Assembly: GCA_048940645.1 (NCBI GenBank)
Contig: JBHLOI010000041.1
Coordinates: 1 to 33,258, forward strand
Length of the DNA stretch: 33,258 nucleotides
Direction: 5' to 3'
Origin: Promethearchaeota archaeon
GTDB lineage: Archaea > Asgardarchaeota > Lokiarchaeia > Sigyniarchaeales > SOKP01
The notes below the pieces were generated by a model. That model was given only the letters and a program-made list of their open reading frames with translations, made no database searches and was not told the origin of the DNA. The translations under genes were made by a program, and so were the position numbers. Shown piece after piece: positions 15,902 through 29,093 of the stretch. Within the stretch, counting starts at the first letter, position 1. Every line of letters starts with the position of its first letter.

Positions 15902-17053
15902 TTACCTTTTCTTCTTTAAAAAATGTCTATAGACAATTTGATAATTTTTTATACTAATTATTCTAGGATTACGTTTAAATTTGGATGGAATGGGAGTACT
16001 ACATCGCGAACAGAGATTTGAAGTTTTTAGCCAATCTTTAAATTCATCAGCATGAGCTGGATATCTACAATTTGGACATACGATTATCCCCCTGCCATTG
16101 TCATTGGGGAGTTTTGGCAGCTTAAAACAAAAAATACATTTAAAATCATCTTCTGATAGGTATGATGCTCTTGGTTTATATCTATCTAAATTTATAGCCT
16201 TTGAAGTTGTTTTTACGGCTCTAGTTCTAGTAGTTTTTGTAGTTCTAGTTTTTTGCCTGTGAGAAGTAGGTGTTGTTCTCGATAATTGAGATCTAGATCT
16301 TGTTGTTTGAGTCACTGTTCTTCTTGAAGGTGATGGGGTAGTTCTAGTTGTTGTACGCACCCTTTGCCTTTGAATTGTAGGAGTATTTAATGAATTTATT
16401 CTTCTAGTACGTTGAGCAATGTAATCTCGAGTTAATGTTGGAAGTGTTCTATGTGAACTAGCTAATCCAAAGATAATAAAGATTGATAATGATGCAATGA
16501 ATAATAATAAAAGATTTAGGTTTAAAGAGAAATGAAGAGGGGTTATAGGAGAATCATAAAATTCTATAACAGTATAAAACAATACCCAATAAATTATTAT
16601 AAAAAGAATAACTGTGGAAGTTAGAATATATCCTAATGTCCTAGCTTTTACTGATTTGGTTCCAAAATAGATTACATTATATTTCTTAAAACACCGATAT
16701 AAAGAATAAGAACCATAGATTATAAATGGAAATCCAAAAATGAGACTCCACCAACTAAAATATAGATTTGAGCCTTCAAGAAGGTTTTCACCCAATATAC
16801 CTGTAAAATATCCCCAAATAGAGTAAAAAATTCCGATGAATAAAGGAATAATTACAAAAAAAGCAGTATTGTGTGGTGAATTAAATTCGCGATGCTGCTT
16901 GATATTTTCAAAAATTTTTACTGTAAAAATTATCCATAAACCAATAAATATCCATGTTAAAAAAATATTTAATGAAATTGAGATAGAACCATGTATTATA
17001 CCGATTATCAAAAAAGCGATAAAAATTATCACTAAACCCTTCTTTTTAATCAT
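15902..17053 (-). CDS. Polytopic membrane protein (about 6 TM) with a Thr/Arg-rich linker and a C-terminal RING-like Zn finger; putative E3 ligase
   Basis: Hydrophobic segments across the N-terminal 200 aa; CIFC-x16-CPNC-x4-H-x2-E-FKDW-x6-CSRC; last gene of the Ubl-E1-E2-JAMM run. Confidence 0.8.
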   Translation of the reverse strand: MIKKKGLVIIFIAFLIIGIIHGSISISLNIFLTWIFIGLWIIFTVKIFENIKQHREFNSPHNTAFFVIIPLFIGIFYSIWGYFTGILGENLLEGSNLYFSWWSLIFGFPFIIYGSYSLYRCFKKYNVIYFGTKSVKARTLGYILTSTVILFIIIYWVLFYTVIEFYDSPITPLHFSLNLNLLLLFIASLSIFIIFGLASSHRTLPTLTRDYIAQRTRRINSLNTPTIQRQRVRTTTRTTPSPSRRTVTQTTRSRSQLSRTTPTSHRQKTRTTKTTRTRAVKTTSKAINLDRYKPRASYLSEDDFKCIFCFKLPKLPNDNGRGIIVCPNCRYPAHADEFKDWLKTSNLCSRCSTPIPSKFKRNPRIISIKNYQIVYRHFLKKKR

Positions 17054-17076
17054 GGTTTAATTCTCACCTAAAAATA

Positions 17077-17883
17077 TTATTCATCATATTCTAAATAGGC
17101 AGGTTTACCTTCAATAATTGGATTCATAAATTCCAAAATCTCCGGTAACATTCTCACATCTAAATACCCTTTAATATCAAATGGTACTGAAAACCACTTC
17201 TTTGTTTTAAAATTTGCACGATAGATTTCAAATCCCAATGAAGTGCCATCAATTTGATACGGATCTATAACTAGCGCAATTGCTTTATCCCATAATTTTT
17301 GATATCTTGCTTGAGTTCCTAAATCTTCTTTAGACATAAAGCATCCATATGAAGGATGGGAGTGATACCAACCACAAATAAATAGATTGTGTTTTTTTAT
17401 ATCTTTAAATGCTCTCACATAATTTTTATAATCTTTTATTTCAGCATAAACTGCTGTACCATGTCCCATTGGATAGGCATCTTCCACATGGAGAACTCCT
17501 TTAGCATTATCAAACTTTCCAGCGAGCAATCCTATCACTTCAACCCATTTCTGTCTTCGAATTTTAGAATGAGCGTATTTTAATGAATGACTAGCTATCT
17601 TAAGGATAGTTTTTATTGTTACAGCTATATGTGCTTCAGCTCTATCATTATTAGCATAAGTTATTACTGGTTCCATTGGTATAGGTTCAAGTTTAACTTT
17701 AACTTTTTCTGAATGCCCTAATGGCTGGGTTTCAATAAGTTCGGAAGTTAATTCTTCCCTTAATTCTTCTTCTAATTGTAATTCGGTATATATCTCTTCA
17801 AGTAATTCTTTTTTAATTTTTTCTTTAATTTTTTGTTTTATTGCTTCTTTGATTGAATTGCTATTTTTCTCGTCTATATTCAT
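17077..17883 (-). CDS. JAB1/MPN+ (JAMM) metalloprotease, Rpn11/CSN5-like deconjugase
   Basis: EVIGLLAG and GWYHSHPSYGCFMSKEDLGTQ JAMM motif, ALVIDP; charged N-terminal extension. Confidence 0.92.
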   Translation of the reverse strand: MNIDEKNSNSIKEAIKQKIKEKIKKELLEEIYTELQLEEELREELTSELIETQPLGHSEKVKVKLEPIPMEPVITYANNDRAEAHIAVTIKTILKIASHSLKYAHSKIRRQKWVEVIGLLAGKFDNAKGVLHVEDAYPMGHGTAVYAEIKDYKNYVRAFKDIKKHNLFICGWYHSHPSYGCFMSKEDLGTQARYQKLWDKAIALVIDPYQIDGTSLGFEIYRANFKTKKWFSVPFDIKGYLDVRMLPEILEFMNPIIEGKPAYLEYDE

Positions 17884-17890
17884 TATAATT

Positions 17891-18418
17891 TCACCACTTA
17901 TTCTTAGCGTACTTCTTTACTAAATTTTTAACTTTTTTCTCGAAAAATTTAGGATTTTTCATCATTTCTATTGCTGCTTTTTTATTAAAAACATCTGTTG
18001 GATTTACAAATTTACCTCGGGTATTTAACATAGCAATTATTGCTTGGACTACTGTAACAGCAGTTTTTGAAGGACTCCATCCACCTTTTTTACCAATTAA
18101 GGAAGGATCTACTAATGCTAGACAAATATTCCTCTGACCTTTGTATTCACTTGGTTTTGGCCAAAAATTTGGATGCCAAATCGGAGTATGCATTCTTACA
18201 AAAGGTGGTTGCTTAGGATACTGAACAGGGAATCTCATTTCTAGTTTAAAAAGTCCTCCTGCAAAAGCAGTACCTTTAGGCCCCTTAATTGTGATAGCTA
18301 AATGATCAATGCTCTTCTTTTTAGAATCAAACGGTTTTAATTGAACTATAGTACCAACTTTAAGCATTTTTTTTAATCCAGCAAAATCACGGGAAACGCG
18401 ACTACTTCTTATACTCAT
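17891..18418 (-). CDS. Ubiquitin-conjugating enzyme E2 (UBC fold)
   Basis: ITIKGPKGTAFAGGLFKLEMRFPVQYPKQPPFVRMHTPIWHPN...ICL...WSPS...VVQAIIAML; catalytic Cys99. Confidence 0.93.
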   Translation of the reverse strand: MSIRSSRVSRDFAGLKKMLKVGTIVQLKPFDSKKKSIDHLAITIKGPKGTAFAGGLFKLEMRFPVQYPKQPPFVRMHTPIWHPNFWPKPSEYKGQRNICLALVDPSLIGKKGGWSPSKTAVTVVQAIIAMLNTRGKFVNPTDVFNKKAAIEMMKNPKFFEKKVKNLVKKYAKNKW

Positions 18419-18522
18419 TTTCTCAACCCTTTTTGTTTTTCTTTATTTTTATAATAAAATTTTTCTCTTTTATATATGTTTTTTTCATTAAACTTTTATA
18501 AAATATATTTTTAACTAAAATT

Positions 18523-19758
18523 TCAATTTAATTTTAAGGTTACATAAATTTCTCCACCTTTAAATCCTGCAACTGTAATAAATTCGTAATTTCTTAAACC
18601 GTTTTCGATTGTGGTTTGTTCTAAATCAATTACTTTGATATCATTGAAATCCAATAAGGTTAGAACAGGCTCAAAATCATGTTCTAATTCAAATCCATTT
18701 TTCTTTAATGTCTTAATTATATTTATACAAGGTGATTGAGGTCTCATTTTTATAGCCACTCGTCTAACAGATTTGCCACATTGAGAGCATTCTGGATTTC
18801 TTGGCTTTTCAATATGATATAATCTCATCGTCATTGCATTAAAGATCACATAATCTTTAATAGGTTCTCCTAATCCTACATGACCTTTTTTCCAATGAAG
18901 TATTTTTACTGCTTCGTGTGATTGTAAAGCAGAAATAACCGCATTTATGGTAATTATTCCAGGATCATGCCTATCAATGATTTTTATAATATCATCTGTA
19001 GTATATTCAGGTAAAAAATTATGTTTGTTAACCAATTCATTTGCAACCTTTTGAATAAATTTTATATCAGTTATATCTTTTGGACTAGGTTCTCGATCAA
19101 ACTTTTCCTTAAATGCCATATCTCCTTTAAAAACACAATGAATCCTTTTTCTGGGGACTCCAACAACTGTACACGCTGCCATTTCATCACTTTCGCTTAC
19201 TGGTAGCGGATTGCACTCATAACAAGCATTTTGATACGGAAAGATTGTGTAAATATGACCATGATAGCCGGATACCCCTGCATCTACGAGTGGTTTTCTA
19301 AATCTTATGCATTGAGCATTTAAGTTCAAGCGTGCATTCATTGAATCAAGACCTCCAATTACAACGTCAGCAGCTTGATATAATGCAGGATCTAATCTTT
19401 CTAGAGAGGTATGATATCCTCTAATAATAATGTTAGGGTTTATTTCCTTTAGTTTCCGAGCAGCAACAACTGCCTTAGGTTCTCCTATCTTTGCATCTGT
19501 GAAAAGAATTTGACGATTCAAATTAGAATGTTCAATTATATCTAAATCAACAAGATCTAATTGACCTAACCCTAACATAGCTAAATTCTTAGCTATTTCA
19601 CATCCTAAACCCCCTACACCAACAATTAACACTCTCGAGTTTTTTACTAATTTTTGTGACCAACCTTCGAGACGAAATTGGCGATCATATAAATCTCTCT
19701 CTTTTACTGACAATTCTTTTGCAAAGAAATCTGAATCTTTATCCAATATTATCACCAT
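18523..19758 (-). CDS. Ubl-activating enzyme E1 (ThiF/MoeB fold, UBA3/UBA2-like with a catalytic Cys segment)
   Basis: YDRQ, GVGGLGCE, D.DIIEHSNLNRQ.LF, GLDSMNAR, ACYEC and CSQC Zn site; MAACTVVGVPRKRIHCV resembles the eukaryotic CT-x3-PR/x-x2-HC catalytic segment. Confidence 0.93.
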   Translation of the reverse strand: MVIILDKDSDFFAKELSVKERDLYDRQFRLEGWSQKLVKNSRVLIVGVGGLGCEIAKNLAMLGLGQLDLVDLDIIEHSNLNRQILFTDAKIGEPKAVVAARKLKEINPNIIIRGYHTSLERLDPALYQAADVVIGGLDSMNARLNLNAQCIRFRKPLVDAGVSGYHGHIYTIFPYQNACYECNPLPVSESDEMAACTVVGVPRKRIHCVFKGDMAFKEKFDREPSPKDITDIKFIQKVANELVNKHNFLPEYTTDDIIKIIDRHDPGIITINAVISALQSHEAVKILHWKKGHVGLGEPIKDYVIFNAMTMRLYHIEKPRNPECSQCGKSVRRVAIKMRPQSPCINIIKTLKKNGFELEHDFEPVLTLLDFNDIKVIDLEQTTIENGLRNYEFITVAGFKGGEIYVTLKLN

Positions 19759-19769
19759 TAATAATAATT

Positions 19770-19823
19770 AAAAAAAAAAAAAAAAATGAAGAGCTTAATG
19801 CCTTCATATTATAATTTATGAAG
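19770..19823 (-). terminator. Intra-operon oligo-T tract (T17 on the minus strand) preceded by short hairpins
   Basis: A17 at 19770-19786; CTTCATA/TATGAAG stem (19802-19823); alternative TGAAG/CTTCA stem (19787-19806); lies between the Ubl stop and the E1 start. Confidence 0.5.
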
Positions 19824-19837
19824 AAAATTATATAAGT

Positions 19838-20164
19838 TTACCCAGCAGTACTCGCAGGAATCAAAAGTATATCATCGCCATCATTTATATTATAATCTTT
19901 TAATTGGCTACTTTCATCCATTGTAACTCCACCAGATGATAAATGAAAATCATTAGGATCAAGGCCATATAAATTTCCTAATGTTTCCTTAATATCACTT
20001 ACATGATTAGCATCATTTACTGTTAATTTTTCCTTCTTTTCACCAGGTCCAATGGTTGACGTAAAGTATAAAGTCAATTTCTTTCCCGCTGAAGGAGTTT
20101 TAGTAGATGGTGTTTTAGATTTTACAGGTTCTAATTCCTCATCAAAATCTTCTTCAAAACTCAT
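19838..20164 (-). CDS. Ubiquitin-like protein 1 (beta-grasp) with an acidic N-terminal tail and a single-Gly C-terminus
   Basis: VSDIKETLGNLYGLDP..FHLSSGGVTMDESSQLKDYNINDGDDILLIPASTAG; directly upstream of E1. Confidence 0.9.
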   Translation of the reverse strand: MSFEEDFDEELEPVKSKTPSTKTPSAGKKLTLYFTSTIGPGEKKEKLTVNDANHVSDIKETLGNLYGLDPNDFHLSSGGVTMDESSQLKDYNINDGDDILLIPASTAG

Positions 20165-20245
20165 TTATTTCACGACTTTTTTATTATTTTGTAATTTTTT
20201 ATTTTTTAAGTTTAATAAAATCGCATTAAAACGATATTATAAAAC

Positions 20246-20270
20246 CCATTGGAATGAATTTGAAGTTTTT
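20246..20270 (-). repeat. 25-bp element, copy 1 (inverted repeat partner of 21109-21133)
   Basis: CCATTGGAATGAATTTGAAGTTTTT is the exact reverse complement of 21109-21133. Confidence 0.9.
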
Positions 20271-20432: not shown

Positions 20433-21104
20433 ATGAACTCTGCGAATGATGTCGAATCTATTATTCTTGAATTAGTAAAAGAATATTTAGAAAAAAAGCC
20501 ATTCTTTTCAATAGAAAACATTGTTGTATTTATTAATAATAGGGTAAAATCAAATCCTTTTATCAATAAAGCTAGGATTGAAATTACTATTAAAAATCTT
20601 ATTAAAAAGAGAATGATAATTCCAGGAACAAAATTGATGAAAAATAATATTATTGAACATCCAGTAAGGAATGAAATCTTTAATTACATAAGGAAAAATC
20701 CTTCGAATATAAATGAAATAATGAATGCTCTAAATATTGGAAGTAATCAAGCTTTATGGCATCTATCCTGTTTGGAAAAATTTCGATTTGTTAGATCAAA
20801 AAAAATTAACAATCGAAAAATAATTTTTGAATATGATTCAAATCCAGAACTTGACGAGCTCTATTATTATTTAAATTTAGCTATTATTCAAGAAATAATT
20901 AATTTTATGAAAAAGGAAGATAAAGCCTTAAAAATTACAGAAATAGCAACTAGCTTAAAAAAGAATCATAATATAATTAAAAAATATTTAAACGTTTTAA
21001 AAAAAATGAAATTAATAAAAATAGAAAAAGAAAAAAAAAGATTTAAATTCAAATTAGATACAGAGAAATATTCTAAAGTTAGAGAAATAATTCAAGGTGT
21101 ATGA
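20433..21104 (+). CDS. Tandem winged helix-turn-helix (ArsR/MarR-like) transcriptional regulator
   Basis: RNEIFNYIRKNP...INEIMNALNIGSNQALWHLSCLEKF and LKITEIATSLKKNHNIIKKYLNVL wHTH units. Confidence 0.8.
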   Translation: MNSANDVESIILELVKEYLEKKPFFSIENIVVFINNRVKSNPFINKARIEITIKNLIKKRMIIPGTKLMKNNIIEHPVRNEIFNYIRKNPSNINEIMNALNIGSNQALWHLSCLEKFRFVRSKKINNRKIIFEYDSNPELDELYYYLNLAIIQEIINFMKKEDKALKITEIATSLKKNHNIIKKYLNVLKKMKLIKIEKEKKRFKFKLDTEKYSKVREIIQGV

Positions 21105-21108
21105 ACAT

Positions 21109-21133
21109 AAAAACTTCAAATTCATTCCAATGG
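21109..21133 (+). repeat. 25-bp element, copy 2
   Basis: AAAAACTTCAAATTCATTCCAATGG, 57-81 nt upstream of the membrane-Ubl ATG. Confidence 0.9.
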
Positions 21134-21189
21134 AATTTAAATTTTAAATTATATATTAGAAATTTAGATAATAATTTAATAAAAAAATC

Positions 21190-21999
21190 ATGAAGAAAAA
21201 ACATAGATTTTTAAGTATTATAACTCTTTACGTTATTTTTATAATTATCTATATGGCTTTTTTCTTATTCCGTATAGAAAGCATTCCTTTATTTCTCGTT
21301 CTAGTTATCGGTAGTGTCTCAGTACTATCCACCAGTACTATCTATACAATTATTCAATCTTCAAGCAGTGAGGATAAGAGAATAAGCGAGAAAAAATATA
21401 TCAAAAAACAAAAATCGATTAAAAAAAAAACAATTGATCTCATCGATGATTATATTGATGCCATGCCTTCAATAAAAGATTATGTTGAATCAAATGCATC
21501 ATATGATAATATGAAAATAATTAATAAATATATTTTTTCTGTGTTTAGCCAGGAAGAATTAGATAACATAAATCTTTTAGAATTATCAAAAATGGATAAA
21601 ATAATGTTTATCAGAGAAATGTTGTATTTTAATAAACAAGAGAGAAAAATTTTAATCGAAAATATGTTGAAAAACAGGGATAAGACTGACGATGAAATAA
21701 TCTATAAGCCTCCTACAAATCTTATTGAAAAGGAAGACCAGATACGAGTTTATGTAAGATCATTAGTTGAGCCCGGTGAGAAAACAAAAATCATTATAAT
21801 TGATACAACAGAACTAATAATTGGTGTTAAAGAAAGAATTGGAATATTATTTGACTATAATTTAGAAGATTTTCTTTTATCCTCTGGAGGAATATTATTG
21901 CATGAAAATTCACAAATAAAGGATTATGATATTGATGATGACGACGAAATTGCTCTGATTCCATCAAGAAAAGAAAAAAATTTAAAAAAGAAGAACTAA
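21190..21999 (+). CDS. Membrane protein (2 N-terminal TM) with a C-terminal Ubl domain paralogous to the neighbouring Ubls; no terminal Gly
   Basis: Two hydrophobic helices at about aa 8-55; C-terminal VYVRSLVEPGEK...VKERIG.LF...DFLLSSGG..L.ENSQIKDYDIDDDDEIALIP followed by SRKEKNLKKKN. Confidence 0.85.
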   Translation: MKKKHRFLSIITLYVIFIIIYMAFFLFRIESIPLFLVLVIGSVSVLSTSTIYTIIQSSSSEDKRISEKKYIKKQKSIKKKTIDLIDDYIDAMPSIKDYVESNASYDNMKIINKYIFSVFSQEELDNINLLELSKMDKIMFIREMLYFNKQERKILIENMLKNRDKTDDEIIYKPPTNLIEKEDQIRVYVRSLVEPGEKTKIIIIDTTELIIGVKERIGILFDYNLEDFLLSSGGILLHENSQIKDYDIDDDDEIALIPSRKEKNLKKKN

Positions 22000-22015: not shown

Positions 22016-22432
22016 TTAACCAGCAGTACTTGCCGGAATTAATAATATATCTTCACCATCATTCACGTTATATTCGCTTAGCATTGAACTCTCATCCATA
22101 GTAATCCCACCCGATGATAAATGAAAATCAGCAGGATCTAAACCAAATAAATTCGCAACAGTCTCTTTAATATCTCCAACACTATTTCCTGTGTTTATGA
22201 GTAATTTTTGCTTTTTTTCACCAGGACCTATAGTTGACATAAAATAAACCGAAATCTTTTTGCCTGCCGATACAGCTTTAACTGCTGGAGTTTTAGCTTT
22301 GAGCTCTTCCGCTGGAGTTTTAGCTTTGACCTCTTCCGCTGGAGTTTTCGCGGAAGGTTCTTCTAATTCTTCATCTAAATCTTCATCAAATTCTTCATCA
22401 AATTCTTCATCAAATTCTTCATCAAAATCCAT
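22016..22432 (-). CDS. Ubiquitin-like protein 2, paralog of 19838-20164, with a repeat-expanded N-terminal tail
   Basis: YFMSTIGPGEKKQKL...VGDIKET..NLFGLDPADFHLSSGGITMDESS.L..YNVNDGEDILLIPASTAG; GGTG-N7-ATG start. Confidence 0.9.
   Translation of the reverse strand: MDFDEEFDEEFDEEFDEDLDEELEEPSAKTPAEEVKAKTPAEELKAKTPAVKAVSAGKKISVYFMSTIGPGEKKQKLLINTGNSVGDIKETVANLFGLDPADFHLSSGGITMDESSMLSEYNVNDGEDILLIPASTAG
22284..22348. repeat. In-frame 27-bp tandem repeat (about 2.4 copies) encoding KTPAEE(V/L)KA
   Basis: GCTGGAGTTTTAGCTTTGA(G/C)CTCTTCC twice, then GCTGGAGTTTT. Confidence 0.85.
22365..22424. repeat. In-frame 12-bp tandem repeat (5 copies) encoding DEEF/DEDL/DEEL
   Basis: AATTCTTCATCA three times exactly, plus two variants. 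Confidence 0.85.
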
Positions 22433-22618
22433 AAATAAACACCAAAGTATTAGAATTATTAATTTTATTGAGTTTTTTAATTATTTTTTGTATTTTCTTA
22501 ATAAAAATAATGGAAGTTATAATATATAAATAGAATCTACAAGCAATACAAAAAGAGCTTAATTTCAAATTGCAAACACTTTAGAGTTAATATTAATATA
22601 ATTTAATTAAGAAATTAA

Positions 22619-23740
22619 ATGAATAAAAGAAATATCATGAATGATAAACCTATTCCCAAGTATCAAATTCGCGAAAAAACGCCTGAAGAAGAAATCGAAA
22701 TGATTCCGGATTCAAGACTACTTAAAAAGATAAAGGAAGAAAGGATTAAGTTAAACAGAGAGAAAAGTGATTGGGAAAAGGTTGTTAAAAAGCTTGAAGG
22801 ATATCAAGAAAACATAAAAGAGCTTGAAAAAAAAAGAAAAGAGAAAGAACTTGAAGTTAAAAATCTTCTAAACCAACGTGAAAAGTTAAAAAATGAATTA
22901 GAAAGAATGAAAAATGGGATTAAGCAACATAAAAATGATCTACTGTTAAAAGAAAGAGAGCTAGATCAAAAAAATGCTGACCTAGATAAATATCAAGAAA
23001 AGCTTGATAGACTAAAAGACGCTCTAGAGAGCGAGAAAAAATATCTAGAAAAGGAAAAAGCAAGAGCAGAAATTCGTGTTAAAGAAATTAAAACTAAAAT
23101 ACCTGGAATGGAAAGAAGAGAAAATGCATTAGAGAGAACAATTGAAAAATTAGAAAATGAATTAATGGACTTGAGAAATGAAATCAAACATCTTTCAAAA
23201 GAAAGGGATAATTTAAATAAAGAAATCAATGATCTAAGAAAAAACATTTTTGATGAAAAAAACCGAATTGATGATGAAAAGAGAAAATTAAAAGATGATA
23301 AAGATAAAAATCGTATTAGAAAAAAGGATTTAAATCTTAAAGCTCGTGAAATTGATAAAAAAAAAGAAGATTTAGAAAAATTTAGAGACAAAGTTGAAAA
23401 TGATGTAAAGAATTTGGAAAAAAAGAAAGGACAACAAGAAACAAGATTAAAAGAGCTAAATAGGAAAGTTCCTAAAGCGGAAGATACTTATTATTCATTA
23501 GAACGCAAAATCCGTGATTTAGAAGATAAGCATAAAAGATTAAATAATGATTATAAGCAGTTAGCAAAAGAGAAATCGATGATAGACTCTGAAAAAAATG
23601 CTATTAGAAGAGAGAGAGAAAAGTTAGAAAGAGATAAAGAGAGATTCCTTGGAGAAAAAAGAGATTTTGAGAGAGAATTAAGGAAAATCAAAGAGATACC
23701 AAAATATAAAATCAAATCTAAAACTCCTTCAAAATATTAA
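22619..23740 (+). CDS. Long all-coiled-coil protein of unknown function
   Basis: Continuous K/E/L/R heptads over about 330 aa with no ATPase or globular domain; internal duplication; IPKYxIxxKTP motif at both ends. Confidence 0.8.
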   Translation: MNKRNIMNDKPIPKYQIREKTPEEEIEMIPDSRLLKKIKEERIKLNREKSDWEKVVKKLEGYQENIKELEKKRKEKELEVKNLLNQREKLKNELERMKNGIKQHKNDLLLKERELDQKNADLDKYQEKLDRLKDALESEKKYLEKEKARAEIRVKEIKTKIPGMERRENALERTIEKLENELMDLRNEIKHLSKERDNLNKEINDLRKNIFDEKNRIDDEKRKLKDDKDKNRIRKKDLNLKAREIDKKKEDLEKFRDKVENDVKNLEKKKGQQETRLKELNRKVPKAEDTYYSLERKIRDLEDKHKRLNNDYKQLAKEKSMIDSEKNAIRREREKLERDKERFLGEKRDFERELRKIKEIPKYKIKSKTPSKY

Positions 23741-23760
23741 TTATTGTTAATGGGAGATTT

Positions 23761-24801
23761 ATGAAAATTCCTACAGGAATTGAAGGAGATTATATAGAAA
23801 CTAAAAGTGATAATTTTTTTTTCGACGTGAAAGGGGTTCATCACCCTTCTGATAGAAAAATATGTTTTATTCGTTTTTATCCTCATCTAAATGGGGATCG
23901 AATCAAAAATGGAAAGAAGTATAAAAAGATCTACGATCTACAAGAACGGTTCTCCTTTTTAAGAAAGCATCACCCAAAATATTTATTTTTCTCTAAAGAA
24001 TTTGATATAGAGCTACAATGTGTCAAAAATGAGGATATTAAAAAAATTTATACTCCACGAGAATATTATAAAGAATTATCGCAAAAATTTAATCCTGACC
24101 GTCTTGAAAAATGTTCTAAAGATCTATGTGAATTATTTATCGAAAAGGCAATGCTCCCACATGGTTCAATCGGTATAACAGGTTCTCAAATGGTTGGATT
24201 AAGCAAAAATCAATCTGATATTGATTTGATTATTTATGGAACAGACATAAGCCGAAATTTCCAAAATAAGCTTCCTATTATCCTAGAAAAAGATCAATAT
24301 TGTAGAAAATATACCAAAGAAGAATACCACAATCATTATGAATGGAGAGTGGGAGGTTCAAGAATTCCATTTGAAAATTTTTTAAAAAGTGAGAGAAGGA
24401 AGCTCCATCAGGGTATGTATAAGGAATTTGAATTTTTTATAAGATATATAAAAAGTCCTAAAGATTGGAAGGGAACTTATTATGATTATTTATATAAAAA
24501 TATGGGAAGAATAAAATTAAAAGCAGAAATCATTGATGATTCTAATGCTATCTTTACACCTTGTTCCTATAAAATAGATGGCATAAAAGTCTACAATAAT
24601 AAATACATTTCAAAAAAGATTAAATTAGATGATATTATGATGGTAACTTCTTTCAGAGGAAGATTCTGTGAACATGCAATTAAAGGAGAAAAGGTTCTTG
24701 TTGAGGGAAAATTGGAAAAAGTCATTTTTAGGAATAATAAAGAATATTTTAGAATATTATTAACAGATCAGAAACAAGATAAAATGATGATTTTAGAATA
24801 A
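23761..24801 (+). CDS. Archaeal predicted nucleotidyltransferase (pol-beta superfamily) with a C-terminal OB-like domain
   Basis: FDVKGVHHP.DR, GITGS..VG...SDIDLIIYG and SFRGRFCE.A..GE.V.VEGKLE motifs. Confidence 0.8.
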   Translation: MKIPTGIEGDYIETKSDNFFFDVKGVHHPSDRKICFIRFYPHLNGDRIKNGKKYKKIYDLQERFSFLRKHHPKYLFFSKEFDIELQCVKNEDIKKIYTPREYYKELSQKFNPDRLEKCSKDLCELFIEKAMLPHGSIGITGSQMVGLSKNQSDIDLIIYGTDISRNFQNKLPIILEKDQYCRKYTKEEYHNHYEWRVGGSRIPFENFLKSERRKLHQGMYKEFEFFIRYIKSPKDWKGTYYDYLYKNMGRIKLKAEIIDDSNAIFTPCSYKIDGIKVYNNKYISKKIKLDDIMMVTSFRGRFCEHAIKGEKVLVEGKLEKVIFRNNKEYFRILLTDQKQDKMMILE

Positions 24802-24870
24802 AATCAAGTAAAATATAAAAAAATAATAGGCATCTTTCATTATAAATTATAGAATTAAGAAATAAAAACT

Positions 24871-25926
24871 ATGATTGAACGTTATATTAAGGCAACTGAG
24901 CTAGATTCAGACGATCCTGATGCGTGGATTAATTTAGGAGATGCCTATTATAATGAAAATGATTTTGATAACGCAATTAATTGTTATCAAAGAGCTATTG
25001 ATATATATCCTTATTTTTCTGAAGTTTGGAATAATATTGGTTTAGCTCTTTCAATGAAAGGAGAATCAGATAAAGCGATTGAGTATTATATGAAGGCTCT
25101 AGAGTTGGAACCTGAAGATGCTACTGTATACTATAATATTGGTTTTGCTTATGAAGATAAAGAAGAATTTACTAACGCATTAGAATATTACACAAAAGCT
25201 TTAGAATATGACCCAAGTAATACTGATGTTTTAAATAATATGGCTTTAATATATAGAGGAGATAAGCAATATGATATGGCTATTGATTGTTATGAAAGAG
25301 CATTAAAAATTAATCCAGATGATCCTTTGCTTTACAATAATCTCGCCATTATTTATTATGATCAACGAGATTATGATAATACTATCCTTTATTATGAAAA
25401 AGCATTAGAATTAGATTCTGATAATGCTGATTTGTGGTGTGAATTAGCAGACATTTATTATGAATTAGGTAATTATGATTTAGCGATAAATTGTTATAAA
25501 AGAGCAATAGAGATTGATCCTTTGTGTGTTGAAGCTTTAAATGATTTAGGCCTATCCTACAACATAAAAGAAAAATTTAAAGAAGCCATAAAATGCTTTC
25601 AAGAAGCTTTAGAAATCTTACCTGATGATCCTATATTATATGATAATTTGGGATATAGTTATTATGCATTACATGATTACGATAAAGCAGTTTATTATTA
25701 TAAAAAAGCCTTACTAAAAAATCCTAATAATACTTCTACGAGAATGAAGTTAGGAGAAATTTATTGCGATATTAAAAGAGATTACAAAAAAGCCATCCAA
25801 CATTTTGAAAAACTTCTTAAATTGAAACCAAAAAATTTAGATTTTTGTGAAACTTTAGCTTTTTGTTATGAAAAATTACATTTATATGAAAAAGCTAATA
25901 AATGCAGAGAAATGAGTTTTAAATGA
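24871..25926 (+). CDS. Tetratricopeptide repeat protein (about 10 TPRs)
   Basis: Repeated 34-aa units W.NLG..Y...A...Y.KALEL.P. Confidence 0.93.
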   Translation: MIERYIKATELDSDDPDAWINLGDAYYNENDFDNAINCYQRAIDIYPYFSEVWNNIGLALSMKGESDKAIEYYMKALELEPEDATVYYNIGFAYEDKEEFTNALEYYTKALEYDPSNTDVLNNMALIYRGDKQYDMAIDCYERALKINPDDPLLYNNLAIIYYDQRDYDNTILYYEKALELDSDNADLWCELADIYYELGNYDLAINCYKRAIEIDPLCVEALNDLGLSYNIKEKFKEAIKCFQEALEILPDDPILYDNLGYSYYALHDYDKAVYYYKKALLKNPNNTSTRMKLGEIYCDIKRDYKKAIQHFEKLLKLKPKNLDFCETLAFCYEKLHLYEKANKCREMSFK

Positions 25927-25979
25927 ACAAATCATTAGTCTTCTTAACTTTTTTATTTTATTAAACTAACTGAATTACA

Positions 25980-27290
25980 ATGGATTTGTTTAATTGTGAT
26001 CTTCATATTCATTCACCACATTCTATTGCAGTTTCTAAATCATTAAATTTAGATTCAATGAGAGAAACCTGTAAAAAGAAAGGGCTTCATATTTTGGGTA
26101 CTGGTGATGCCCTACAACCAGACTGGCTTAAATATTTAGAAAAAAATCTAAAGCGTAACAATGATAGAGCATATTATTATAAGGATATCTCGTTTATACT
26201 ACAAACTGAAATTGAAGATAGAGATAGTGTCCATCAAATGGTGCTTTTTCCTAATTTTGATACGGTTAAACAAATACAAAATAAACTGAAACCTTACTCT
26301 AAAAATATTCTTGATGAATGGGGAGGACGTCCAAGAGTAAATCTTTTTGGTGCGGAGTTAGTAGATTTAATAACCGACTCTGGCGGTTTGATTGGACCTG
26401 CTCATGCGTTTACTCCATTTAAAGCAATATTTCGCCAAAATAAATATAATACATTAGAAAGTTGCTACCAAGATACTGTAAAAAAAGTAACTTTTCTGGA
26501 ATTAGGATTATCTGCTAATACAGAATTGGCTGATCGTTTAGAATCTTTAAATAATGTCACATTTCTAAGTAATAGTGATGCTCATTCTCAAGATCCTCGT
26601 TCTTTAGGCCGAGAATTCAATCAATTAGATATCGATAATCCCTCTTTTGATGAGATTGAACTTGCCTTGAGAAGAAAAGAAGGGAGGAAAGTAACACTCA
26701 ACGTAGGATTACACCCTAAACTTGGAAAATATTATAATATGTTTTGTAATAAATGTAGGAGAAGGGTTTTATTTAAAAAAGGTAAAAGCGGTATTTCAGA
26801 AATTTTTTCTCAATATACCATAACTGATAATTTTATTCTATTCTTCTCAAATAATCCATTAAAATCGAGAATAGATTACATTAAACAAGTAGCAAAGGAA
26901 AAAATGATTTGTCCTAGCTGTAAGGAAGCAACTGGTAAAAATTTTAAAATTAGATTAGGCGTGAGTGAGAGAATTGAAACGATTGCTTCCTACAAGAAAC
27001 CAAAACATCCAGAACATCGCCCTCCATATATAAACGCTATTCCTCTAATCGATATAATTCGATCTATTAGAGGGGTTAAAAGTACTAAGAGTAAAACTGT
27101 ATTAAATGAATACAATAGGTTAATTGAAAAATTTGGCACTGAATTTTCGATTTTAATCGATATACCAATAACAGACATCGAAAAATTTAATAAAAATATT
27201 GCTTCTATTATAAATGCTTTTAGGAATAATGAAATCCAATATTCACCTGGCGGAGGAGGATCATATGGAGAAATTAAATTTGATCTTTAA
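25980..27290 (+). CDS. PHP-domain protein with Zn finger, endonuclease Q-like
   Basis: DLHIHS, GTGD, GRP, GPAHAFTP, ELGLSA, SNSDAHS...LGREFN, LGKY..CNKC...CPSC..GVSERI and PGGGGSYG motifs. Confidence 0.85.
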   Translation: MDLFNCDLHIHSPHSIAVSKSLNLDSMRETCKKKGLHILGTGDALQPDWLKYLEKNLKRNNDRAYYYKDISFILQTEIEDRDSVHQMVLFPNFDTVKQIQNKLKPYSKNILDEWGGRPRVNLFGAELVDLITDSGGLIGPAHAFTPFKAIFRQNKYNTLESCYQDTVKKVTFLELGLSANTELADRLESLNNVTFLSNSDAHSQDPRSLGREFNQLDIDNPSFDEIELALRRKEGRKVTLNVGLHPKLGKYYNMFCNKCRRRVLFKKGKSGISEIFSQYTITDNFILFFSNNPLKSRIDYIKQVAKEKMICPSCKEATGKNFKIRLGVSERIETIASYKKPKHPEHRPPYINAIPLIDIIRSIRGVKSTKSKTVLNEYNRLIEKFGTEFSILIDIPITDIEKFNKNIASIINAFRNNEIQYSPGGGGSYGEIKFDL

Positions 27291-27953: not shown

Positions 27954-29093
27954 ATGAGTGATAAGGAATATGATTTAACTGAAATTGCGAGATCAAGAAT
28001 ATCAGTTAGATCAAGATTTACAGAAATAGCTCGTCAAAATAAACTCAATCAGACCTCCAATTTAGATGATGATAAATATTTATCAGACTTACTTAAAATA
28101 TTAAAAATCAAAAGTTTAGTGATAGGGATTGGCGGTGCTGGGAATAACACGGTATCGAGAATGCAAGATATTGGAAGTAAATTTGTTGAAACCCTAAATA
28201 TAAATACTGATGCTCACGACTTATATTATTCCAATGCGAATAAGAAACTTCTAATAGGTAAAGAAATATGTAATGGTTTAGGGTCTGGAAATGATCCTAG
28301 TATTGGAGCTGCAGCAGCCGAAGAAGACATAGAAAGAATTTCTGAAATATTAAAAGCAGATGTGGTTTTTTTAGCTTTTGGTTTAGGTGGAGGTACTGGG
28401 ACGGGGGCAGCTCCTATTATTGCTAGAGAAGCGAAAAAGAATAAAGCAACAGTGGTTACATTTTGTTCAATTCCTTTCACATCTGAGGGTAAGGAGAGAA
28501 TGAATAGAGCAAAATCGGGACTTAAGGAAATTATTAGCGACACTGATTGTTTAATACCAATACCTAATGATAACCTTTTAAGATTCAATAAAGGAATACC
28601 AATCTTAACCGGTTTTAAAATAATGGATGAAGTGTTAATTAGGTGTATCCGCGAAATCCTCAACCTAATTAATAACTGTGGTCTGATAAATATTGATTAT
28701 GCTGATGTAAAAAAGATTTTTGAAAAAAAGGGGGAACTTCCCAGTGGTTTGATTGGGATAACAGAATCTTATGGAGAAGAATCAGATCTTATAAAAAAGG
28801 CAAAATTAGCGCTACATAATCCGTTATTAGAGCCTGATCCTATGCAAGTTGATAAATGCATAGTCTCTGTATCAGGAGATCATAAGTTATCCTTATCTAA
28901 AATCGATAAGATAATTGCTACTATCACAGATGAAATTCCTGAGGAAGCTTCACTCAAATTTGGAACCGCTTTAGATCCCTCCTTAAAATCAAAAGTTAGA
29001 ATAATGGCTTTAGGACGAGGGCCTATATCTCCGTATGCCCAAGCTTCTTTGGATGGAACAGATTTTCCTCAACCTAATTTTACTGCCCTATAA
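27954..29093 (+). CDS. ftsZ: Cell division protein FtsZ
   Basis: GIGGAGNN, NTD, GLGGGTGTGAAP, PF..EG..R, N.NL and INIDYADVK (T7 loop) motifs. Confidence 0.95.
   Translation: MSDKEYDLTEIARSRISVRSRFTEIARQNKLNQTSNLDDDKYLSDLLKILKIKSLVIGIGGAGNNTVSRMQDIGSKFVETLNINTDAHDLYYSNANKKLLIGKEICNGLGSGNDPSIGAAAAEEDIERISEILKADVVFLAFGLGGGTGTGAAPIIAREAKKNKATVVTFCSIPFTSEGKERMNRAKSGLKEIISDTDCLIPIPNDNLLRFNKGIPILTGFKIMDEVLIRCIREILNLINNCGLINIDYADVKKIFEKKGELPSGLIGITESYGEESDLIKKAKLALHNPLLEPDPMQVDKCIVSVSGDHKLSLSKIDKIIATITDEIPEEASLKFGTALDPSLKSKVRIMALGRGPISPYAQASLDGTDFPQPNFTAL

Follow-up and report, generated by a model that had tools for sequence, protein, structure and literature searches.

The pairing of bacterial extracytoplasmic function (ECF) sigma factors with membrane anti-sigma factors, such as sigmaE–RseA, is a well-known arrangement in which a regulator is held by a membrane partner. 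Feedback that ties the expression of proteasome and ubiquitin genes to pathway load is known from the membrane-tethered Nrf1/NFE2L1 and from Rpn4, and HERP/Usa1, TMUB1, and Dsc3 are membrane subunits with a ubiquitin-like (UBL) domain in eukaryotic membrane RING-ligase complexes. Asgard ubiquitin systems have been studied as eukaryotic forerunners, and to our knowledge nothing has been described of their regulation or of their connection to the membrane. Ubiquitin-fold proteins can also be anchored by prenylation, as in MUB/UBL3, where MUB binds the backside of E2 and blocks E1 charging (PMC4996978). Here we analyze a 33,258-nt stretch of DNA (hereafter the window; G+C 29%) from the Lokiarchaeia genome GCA_048940645.1, a metagenome-assembled genome (MAG) of 3.8 Mb and 89.6% completeness, in which a gene that we call membrane-Ubl lies next to a gene for a tandem winged-helix protein (wHTH, for winged helix–turn–helix) and an operon for ubiquitin-like protein (Ubl) conjugation. 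Sequence comparison and structural models indicate that membrane-Ubl encodes a genuine, conserved membrane-anchored Ubl-domain protein without a conjugatable end. We propose, with a confidence that we would put at about even, that this protein is the membrane-bound partner of the upstream wHTH, and that the two make up a module by which the Ubl conjugation operon regulates itself.

The locus recalls sigmaE–RseA in that a regulator gene adjoins the gene for a membrane protein with a cytoplasmic domain that, by prediction, docks on the regulator and hides its surface for reading nucleic acids; the gene for the membrane partner also appears to lie in the same regulon, as feedback would require, and there are sibling pairs with varied extracellular sensors. 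It differs from sigmaE–RseA in its tandem winged-helix regulator, a new helical docking domain (the “mid” domain below), and a putative cytoplasmic ubiquitin-fold input. Neither wHTH nor membrane-Ubl has a Pfam match to a sigma factor or anti-sigma family, and the mid domain has no significant match in the PDB by sequence or fold. Membrane-Ubl resembles MUB/UBL3 in presenting a non-conjugatable ubiquitin fold at the predicted cytoplasmic face of the membrane; MUB acts on the ubiquitin system itself, as membrane-Ubl may. Unlike MUB/UBL3, with their C-terminal CaaX prenylation and lap-bar loop, it has an N-terminal transmembrane (TM) hairpin, the mid domain, and a basic tail; its C-terminus, ...KEKN followed in the window protein by LKKKN, contains no Cys and hence no CaaX box, and no sequence relationship to MUB was found with Pfam. 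With HERP/Usa1, TMUB1, and Dsc3 it shares the form of a membrane protein with an integral UBL, and its gene neighbors that of a polytopic protein bearing a RING-like finger, yet the domain order differs and homology is detectable nowhere but in the ubiquitin fold; Pfam searches of membrane-Ubl at E values up to 0.1 returned no family besides ubiquitin. The likeness to Nrf1 and Rpn4 is functional only, and lies in the concept of a transcription factor for tagging or degradation machinery that is kept inactive at the membrane, or unstable, by way of that machinery; the steps of modification, extraction, and cleavage belong to the analogy. As concepts, the membrane tether for a regulator and the membrane UBL protein are already known; what is new is the docking domain, its pairing with tandem winged-helix proteins, and the proposed ubiquitin fold as an input domain. 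A full-text literature search found no description of membrane-Ubl, the mid domain, or the wHTH/mid pair.

The start of membrane-Ubl is supported by an M-(K/R)-K-K N-terminus that is conserved in its orthologues. An earlier note on this DNA, made from the sequence alone, had proposed two N-terminal TM helices, and these are confirmed both by Kyte-Doolittle hydropathy, where two segments exceed 1.6 in 19-residue windows (TM1 and TM2 in Table 1), and by a full-length AlphaFold2 (AF2) model, built on an alignment of 44 orthologues, in which hairpin helices span residues 2–26 and 32–60. TM2 carries the conserved motif IGSV.VLSTSTIYT, with S42, S47, and Y52 invariant in orthologues. By the positive-inside rule, both ends of the hairpin are probably cytoplasmic, because the charged stretches, KKKHR at the N-terminus and a K-rich run after TM2, flank it on both sides. 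The linker that follows is K-rich in all orthologues, and the predicted local distance difference test score (pLDDT) of the AF2 model is below 50 over residues 52–89. The architecture given in the earlier note was incomplete, since it overlooked the conserved helical mid domain that stands between hairpin and Ubl; the helical region spans residues 84–161 in the full-length model, and residues P93, Y98, F116, K137, F140, Y146, R152, and L155 are invariant in orthologues.

It is this mid domain that places membrane-Ubl in a wider family. The domain has no Pfam match, and a profile built from it retrieved 110 clusters from 1.84 billion representative proteins. It forms a separate module, nearly always at the extreme, cytoplasmic C-terminus of membrane proteins, after a TM helix and a basic stretch, and its carriers include Asgard surface proteins of up to 2081 aa with beta-helix/NosD, Ig-like, WD40, or LamG ectodomains. 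The TM helix that precedes it in the sibling proteins follows the pattern I-G-S-(A/V)-x-x-(V/I)-S-x-x-(S/T)-x-Y, the same pattern as in TM2 of membrane-Ubl, which is itself the sole convincing mid-domain match in the window’s genome. When the domain was modeled alone (AF2, 59 sequences), its last three helices reached pLDDT 85–91. Searches with this fold gave nothing with E <6 in the PDB by Foldseek, a best Z of 5.3 (ORC3) in a wide VIA-align search, where generic three-helix bundles scored Z ∼3, and only the domain’s own Promethearchaeota clusters in the Atlas; the sequence profile gave nothing under E 0.1 against the PDB. We also considered a UBA/CUE-like reading of the domain, which found no support in the fold and sequence searches.

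Two further observations concern the mid-domain proteins. Among the large surface proteins that end in it (clusters P0134–P0230; e.g. L041:10590–15113, L042:4264–8757, and L043:10794–14690), some have two tandem mid copies. In 28 of the 110 clusters (P0134, P0142, P0155, and others) an eight-ligand zinc finger, C.(V/I)H...C..C...YC..C...CW.C, precedes the mid domain by ∼55 residues, and at least six proteins of the window’s genome that have no mid domain terminate in this finger (C60:15772–16854, C25:11815–13029, C104:8383–10167, C11:74017–74931, C104:6409–8187, and C104:69368–70918). It has no Pfam match, and we do not call it a RING because its hidden Markov model fails to match the operon’s RING-like protein.

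The gene directly 5′ of membrane-Ubl encodes wHTH in every orthologous locus that has kept wHTH intact. Residues 77–122 of this protein match Pfam HTH_5 (PF01022; E 4.3e-9, 36.5 bits; cut-off 22), as in ArsR/SmtB-type proteins, and a second winged helix lies at ∼150–207. Pfam groups the protein with regulator families of the ArsR/HTH_5, HTH_24, and HrcA types, and the Atlas clusters nearest to it consist of HTH regulators. Paralogues of wHTH are numerous in Lokiarchaeia, with up to 19 matches in one genome. We sampled 20 paralogue loci, whose wHTH proteins are 30–46% identical; 15 of them have a gene for a mid-domain protein in the cluster, usually as the next gene, and in the other 5 the contig ends on the side where the mid-domain gene would lie. 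Starting instead from mid-domain proteins, we found three more wHTH pairings (L023, L031, and L032) and one zinc-finger-type mid protein, P0134, with no wHTH neighbor. The adjacency of regulator and membrane-partner genes is thereby seen to be conserved across the paralogous pairs. In several paralogous modules, an extra short wHTH gene (135–190 aa) separates the full-length wHTH gene from that of the mid-domain receptor (L041:10168–10593, L042:8754–9326, L043:10294–10791, L044:2948–3373, L046:8876–9283, and L048:2483–2950).

Co-folding agrees with the gene neighborhood. With alignments for both partners, three runs of wHTH with the mid domain gave ipSAE scores of 0.82, 0.59, and 0.82 (median 0.82), as compared to 0.00, 0.00, and 0.45 for three controls; 58 of 80 solved complexes attain the mark taken to support binding, as do 2 of 110 mismatched pairs. 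At least 78% of contacts agree among the runs, and the partner pLDDT is at least 72. The models support binding of the mid domain to winged helices 1 and 2 of wHTH. In the predicted interface, the YIFS segment of the mid domain (residues 111–119) packs against wHTH residues 24–27 and 62–65, and the C-terminal mid helices against wHTH residues 103–113, at the ArsR-type recognition helix (GSNQALWHLS, residues 103–112), the WHL triplet of which is invariant even among paralogues. The wHTH residues placed in this interface score higher for conservation among paralogues than its other residues do (0.62 versus 0.51).

A second line of evidence ties the pair to the conjugation operon. Positions 20240–20270 and 21109–21139 form a 31-nt inverted repeat with 94% complementarity, which places one copy of a 25-nt element before Ubl1 at the operon head and another before membrane-Ubl, with the wHTH gene located between the two. 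The element’s core, ACTTCAAATTCATTCCAATGG, contains the dyad TTCCA-A-TGGAA; read toward each gene, the element precedes a TATA-like run and abuts the TATA/B recognition element region. It is conserved before both genes in relatives from genera g1, g12, and g5, and in genus g11 both copies have changed in parallel. The exact degenerate core is found only at these two sites in the whole assembly. Because the same element and TATA run stand before both transcription units, membrane-Ubl would have its own promoter, with a cis element in common with the operon. In g1, g12, and g5 the gene order is also kept: the operon, with the RING-like polytopic protein gene last after Ubl1, E1, E2, and JAMM, diverges from wHTH and membrane-Ubl, which are followed by the convergent Ubl2 and then by genes for a coiled-coil, a nucleotidyltransferase (NTase)-like, a TPR, and a PHP protein. 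In g11 the enzyme genes lie elsewhere, with the core of Ubl1 diverging from wHTH and membrane-Ubl retained. The co-occurrence of membrane-Ubl with the operon in relatives, which the earlier note had named as a check on its reading, is found in the first three genera, and in g11 as that Ubl1/wHTH core only. The shared promoter element and the synteny support membership of membrane-Ubl in the operon’s regulon.

The Ubl domain itself is 33% identical to both free Ubls in a MAFFT alignment and 36–37% in BLASTP (E 1e-11 to 1e-17), and the alignment bears out the motifs PGEK, DF.LSSGG, and KDY.I.D.D.I.LIP that the earlier note had seen in all three. The Pfam ubiquitin match (PF00240) has E 3.4e-4 and 20.8 bits, which is under the 25.4-bit cut-off; a precomputed PF00240 match is present in many orthologues. 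The structure prediction that had been suggested returns a ubiquitin fold for residues 184–258 (AF2 pLDDT 76–90), and Foldseek superposes this model, with its ubiquitin-like beta-grasp topology, on ubiquitin, NEDD8, SUMO, and Caldiarchaeum Ub with TM(target) scores of 0.78–0.88 and root-mean-square deviations of 1.1–2.5 Å. Both free Ubls terminate in IPASTAG and membrane-Ubl in IPSRKEKNLKKKN. In an alignment to ubiquitin, the terminal STAG of the free Ubls falls at the position of ubiquitin’s LRGG, where membrane-Ubl has S-R-K-E-K-N. The claim of a non-conjugatable end stands: membrane-Ubl lacks the C-terminal Gly on a flexible tail of a conjugatable Ubl, and there is no Gly after the fold in the best 120 of its 413 relatives. 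The replacement of ASTAG by SRKEKNLKKKN, as the earlier note put it, holds for the window protein, but only the closest relatives share its LKKKN part; across the family the tail reads IPS-R-K-x-x-x, and most membrane-Ubl proteins have 264 aa.

Membrane-Ubl is best seen as a minimal, inward-looking member of the receptor/wHTH pair family, in which an extra TM helix would replace the ectodomain and a Ubl would have been appended after the docking domain. In the mechanism that we propose, wHTH would act as a transcription factor with the 25-nt element as its recognition site. Capture by the membrane protein would sequester or occlude it, probably by covering one DNA-reading helix, in the manner of a membrane anti-sigma factor. 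The feedback loop would be closed by the presence of the membrane-Ubl gene in the same regulon; it would be negative, as in sigmaE/RseA, if wHTH is an activator and positive if wHTH is a repressor. The Ubl would take the place of the siblings’ extracellular sensors as a cytoplasmic input, one that readers of the pathway could recognize and that could not be activated. The input might arrive by binding of E1, E2, or JAMM, by modification through the membrane RING-like protein, or through use of the Ubl as a degron for Cdc48/proteasome, and any of these routes would make release of the regulator depend on the pathway’s state.

A word-index search for membrane-Ubl retrieved 413 relatives, the best 120 of which are 62–100% identical and 237–276 aa long. 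Full-length membrane-Ubl (E <1e-50) is present in 92 of 400 Asgard genomes, all from four genera of one Lokiarchaeia family (g1, 35/42; g12, 50/54; g11, 4/10; g5, 3/6), and the matches in the remaining genomes are limited to free Ubls. None of the 80 listed loci from species-representative genomes comes from a cultured host; all are MAGs, labeled Promethearchaeota or similar. Across six orthologue pairs, dN/dS by the NG86 method is 0.15–0.33 for the whole gene and, in five of the six pairs, 0.05–0.15 for the Ubl domain, the lowest of all regions; these ratios are rough, as dS is near saturation. By this measure the gene is under purifying selection, and the Ubl is its most constrained part. 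The earlier note had allowed for a lineage-restricted chance fusion. The restriction to four genera of one family is real and is what would favor such a fusion, or a decaying gene without function, yet the 92 genomes and the dN/dS values contradict chance, and we reject that part; with start, length, and tail all conserved, the synteny invariant, and the gene equipped with its own conserved promoter element, a functionless gene is hardly credible.

A functional protein could still act otherwise than as a regulator’s tether. The anchored Ubl might be a membrane UBL adaptor or inhibitor that binds E2, E1, JAMM, the RING protein, Cdc48, or the proteasome and so localizes or restrains them, much as MUB/UBL3 does with E2s and HERP/Usa1/Dsc3 with membrane RING ligases, while wHTH would merely regulate transcription. 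This is in essence the reading of the earlier note, which also considered that the protein might be an acceptor for Ubl chains. Such a role would suit a Ubl that keeps the free-Ubl motifs and is the protein’s most constrained part, a promoter element common to the gene and the operon, an E3-like operon protein that is itself polytopic, and a genome that encodes Cdc48-type ATPases (five CDC48_N matches); it is also compatible with the regulatory tether, and both could hold. It leaves unexplained, however, the strong wHTH–mid co-fold and the occurrence of the mid domain on dozens of Ubl-less surface proteins, each with its own wHTH paralogue, and Pfam reveals no sequence relationship to the MUB, HERP, TMUB, or UBX families. 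We regard it as a serious though rather unlikely explanation of membrane-Ubl. The evidence favors a regulatory tether over an adaptor of the kind used in endoplasmic-reticulum-associated degradation (HERP, TMUB1), because the sole partner with evidence behind it is the adjacent wHTH, predicted to bind through the mid domain. Alternatively, wHTH might not be a transcription factor at all, but a tandem winged-helix adaptor, ESCRT-II-like, that links membrane-protein tails to other machinery, with membrane-Ubl as a built-in “pre-ubiquitinated” cargo or nucleator. Winged helices 1 and 2 are predicted to bind protein and are the most conserved parts among paralogues, many large surface proteins carry the mid domain on their tails, with the zinc finger adjacent in 28/110 clusters, and Asgard ubiquitin binds ESCRT-I components (PMC9192718). 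A search for a UEV domain (PF05743) drew no match in the window’s genome, a negative that carries no information, as the control genomes gave none either. Yet a dedicated paralogue for each membrane protein is typical of signaling pairs rather than of a general adaptor, a dyad-containing element brackets the wHTH gene, and no ESCRT-II family matches wHTH even at E 0.1; its Pfam placement among regulators makes this role less likely, and we consider it improbable.

The regulatory tether has weaknesses of its own. The support for wHTH–mid binding consists of a model score and gene neighborhood, DNA binding by wHTH and its link to the 25-nt element are drawn from position, and the role of the Ubl in the circuit is one that we purely infer. 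If winged helix 2 binds protein in all paralogues, as the invariant WHL might suggest, wHTH may not contact DNA with it at all. Around the paralogous wHTH/mid modules, an exact 13-mer test revealed no repeated operators. Finally, in genome G188 the wHTH gene beside an intact membrane-Ubl is apparently truncated, with a 77-aa open reading frame (ORF) as its remnant.

Table 1. Features of the membrane-Ubl locus, in coordinates of the window
Feature	Coordinates	Strand	Basis
Membrane-anchored Ubl protein gene (membrane-Ubl), 269 aa, stop included in coordinates	21190–21999	+	ORF
Membrane hairpin: TM1 residues ∼7–27, short outer loop, TM2 ∼32–58 (predicted)	21208–21363	+	hydropathy, AF2 helices
Basic, disordered juxtamembrane linker, residues 59–82	21364–21435	+	low pLDDT, K-rich
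Mid domain, residues 83–165, helical, predicted wHTH docking site	21436–21684	+	profile search, AF2, co-folding
Ubiquitin-fold (beta-grasp) domain, residues 184–258	21739–21963	+	Pfam, alignment, AF2, Foldseek
Basic C-terminal tail SRKEKNLKKKN, without Gly, in place of the free Ubls’ STAG	21964–21996	+	alignment
wHTH gene, 223 aa, tandem winged helices, ArsR-type HTH_5, predicted partner and likely regulator	20433–21104	+	Pfam, synteny, co-folding
25-nt element then TATA-like run, 57–81 nt upstream of membrane-Ubl start	21109–21133	+	inverted repeat, conservation
Second 25-nt element copy, 82–106 nt upstream of Ubl1	20246–20270	−	inverted repeat, conservation
Ubl-E1-E2-JAMM-RING operon	15902–20164	−	Pfam, synteny
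Ubl1, operon head	19838–20164	−	Pfam ubiquitin, E 7.2e-7 (reported for the operon)
E1	18523–19758	−	Pfam ThiF, E 2.2e-60
E2	17891–18418	−	Pfam UQ_con, E 1.5e-24
JAMM	17077–17883	−	Pfam JAB, E 1.2e-14
Multi-TM protein with RING-like finger	15902–17053	−	operon synteny
Ubl2, second free single-Gly Ubl, convergent with and directly 3′ of membrane-Ubl	22016–22432	−	ORF, Pfam, alignment, synteny

Several other features of the locus and its relatives deserve mention. Both free Ubls end in a single terminal Gly, with no propeptide, and have acidic, K-T-P-rich N-terminal extensions of differing lengths that are built from 12-nt and 27-nt repeats. In several genera the downstream block from the coiled-coil to the PHP gene (22619–27290) stays syntenic with the Ubl locus, and before its coiled-coil gene, at 22509–22525, there is a partial copy of the end of the 25-nt element plus a TATA run, AATGGAAGTTATAATAT. 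The translation of a further ORF in the window (27954–29093) has the GGGTGTG signature of the tubulin/FtsZ type. Relatives encode proteins of 274–307 aa in which a weak Roadblock/LC7-like N-terminal domain (E ∼0.004) is joined by a linker to a C-terminal Ubl with an end resembling that of the free, conjugatable Ubls (L026:1583–2506, L028:2121–2954, L029:1323–2156, L030:1850–2674, and L020:1342–1900); no such gene was found in the window’s genome. An apparent 517-aa fusion of a Ubl to ribosomal protein S3Ae in genome G188 (L020:1342–2895) spans an N/X run, that is, an assembly gap, and is no fusion.

Taken at its widest, the proposal is that Lokiarchaeia possess transmembrane signaling pairs in which the TM helix and mid domain of a receptor capture a dedicated tandem winged-helix factor, and that the window pair monitors the cell’s own Ubl system by means of a non-activatable Ubl decoy or degron, such that pathway load would set transcription of the Ubl, E1, E2, JAMM, and RING genes. 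We advance this broader version more tentatively than the local one, as a possibility that is somewhat more doubtful than not. The locus offers a testable circuit, made up of a regulator, two candidate operator copies, a tether at the membrane whose docking domain is new, and an input domain of the ubiquitin fold. Reconstitution in vitro without culture should be possible because all of its components are small and, apart from the hairpin, soluble. If the proposal is true, the feedback logic of Nrf1/Rpn4 would have a counterpart among archaea in the window pair, and the wider family of receptor–regulator pairs may be a main transmembrane signaling route in Lokiarchaeia.

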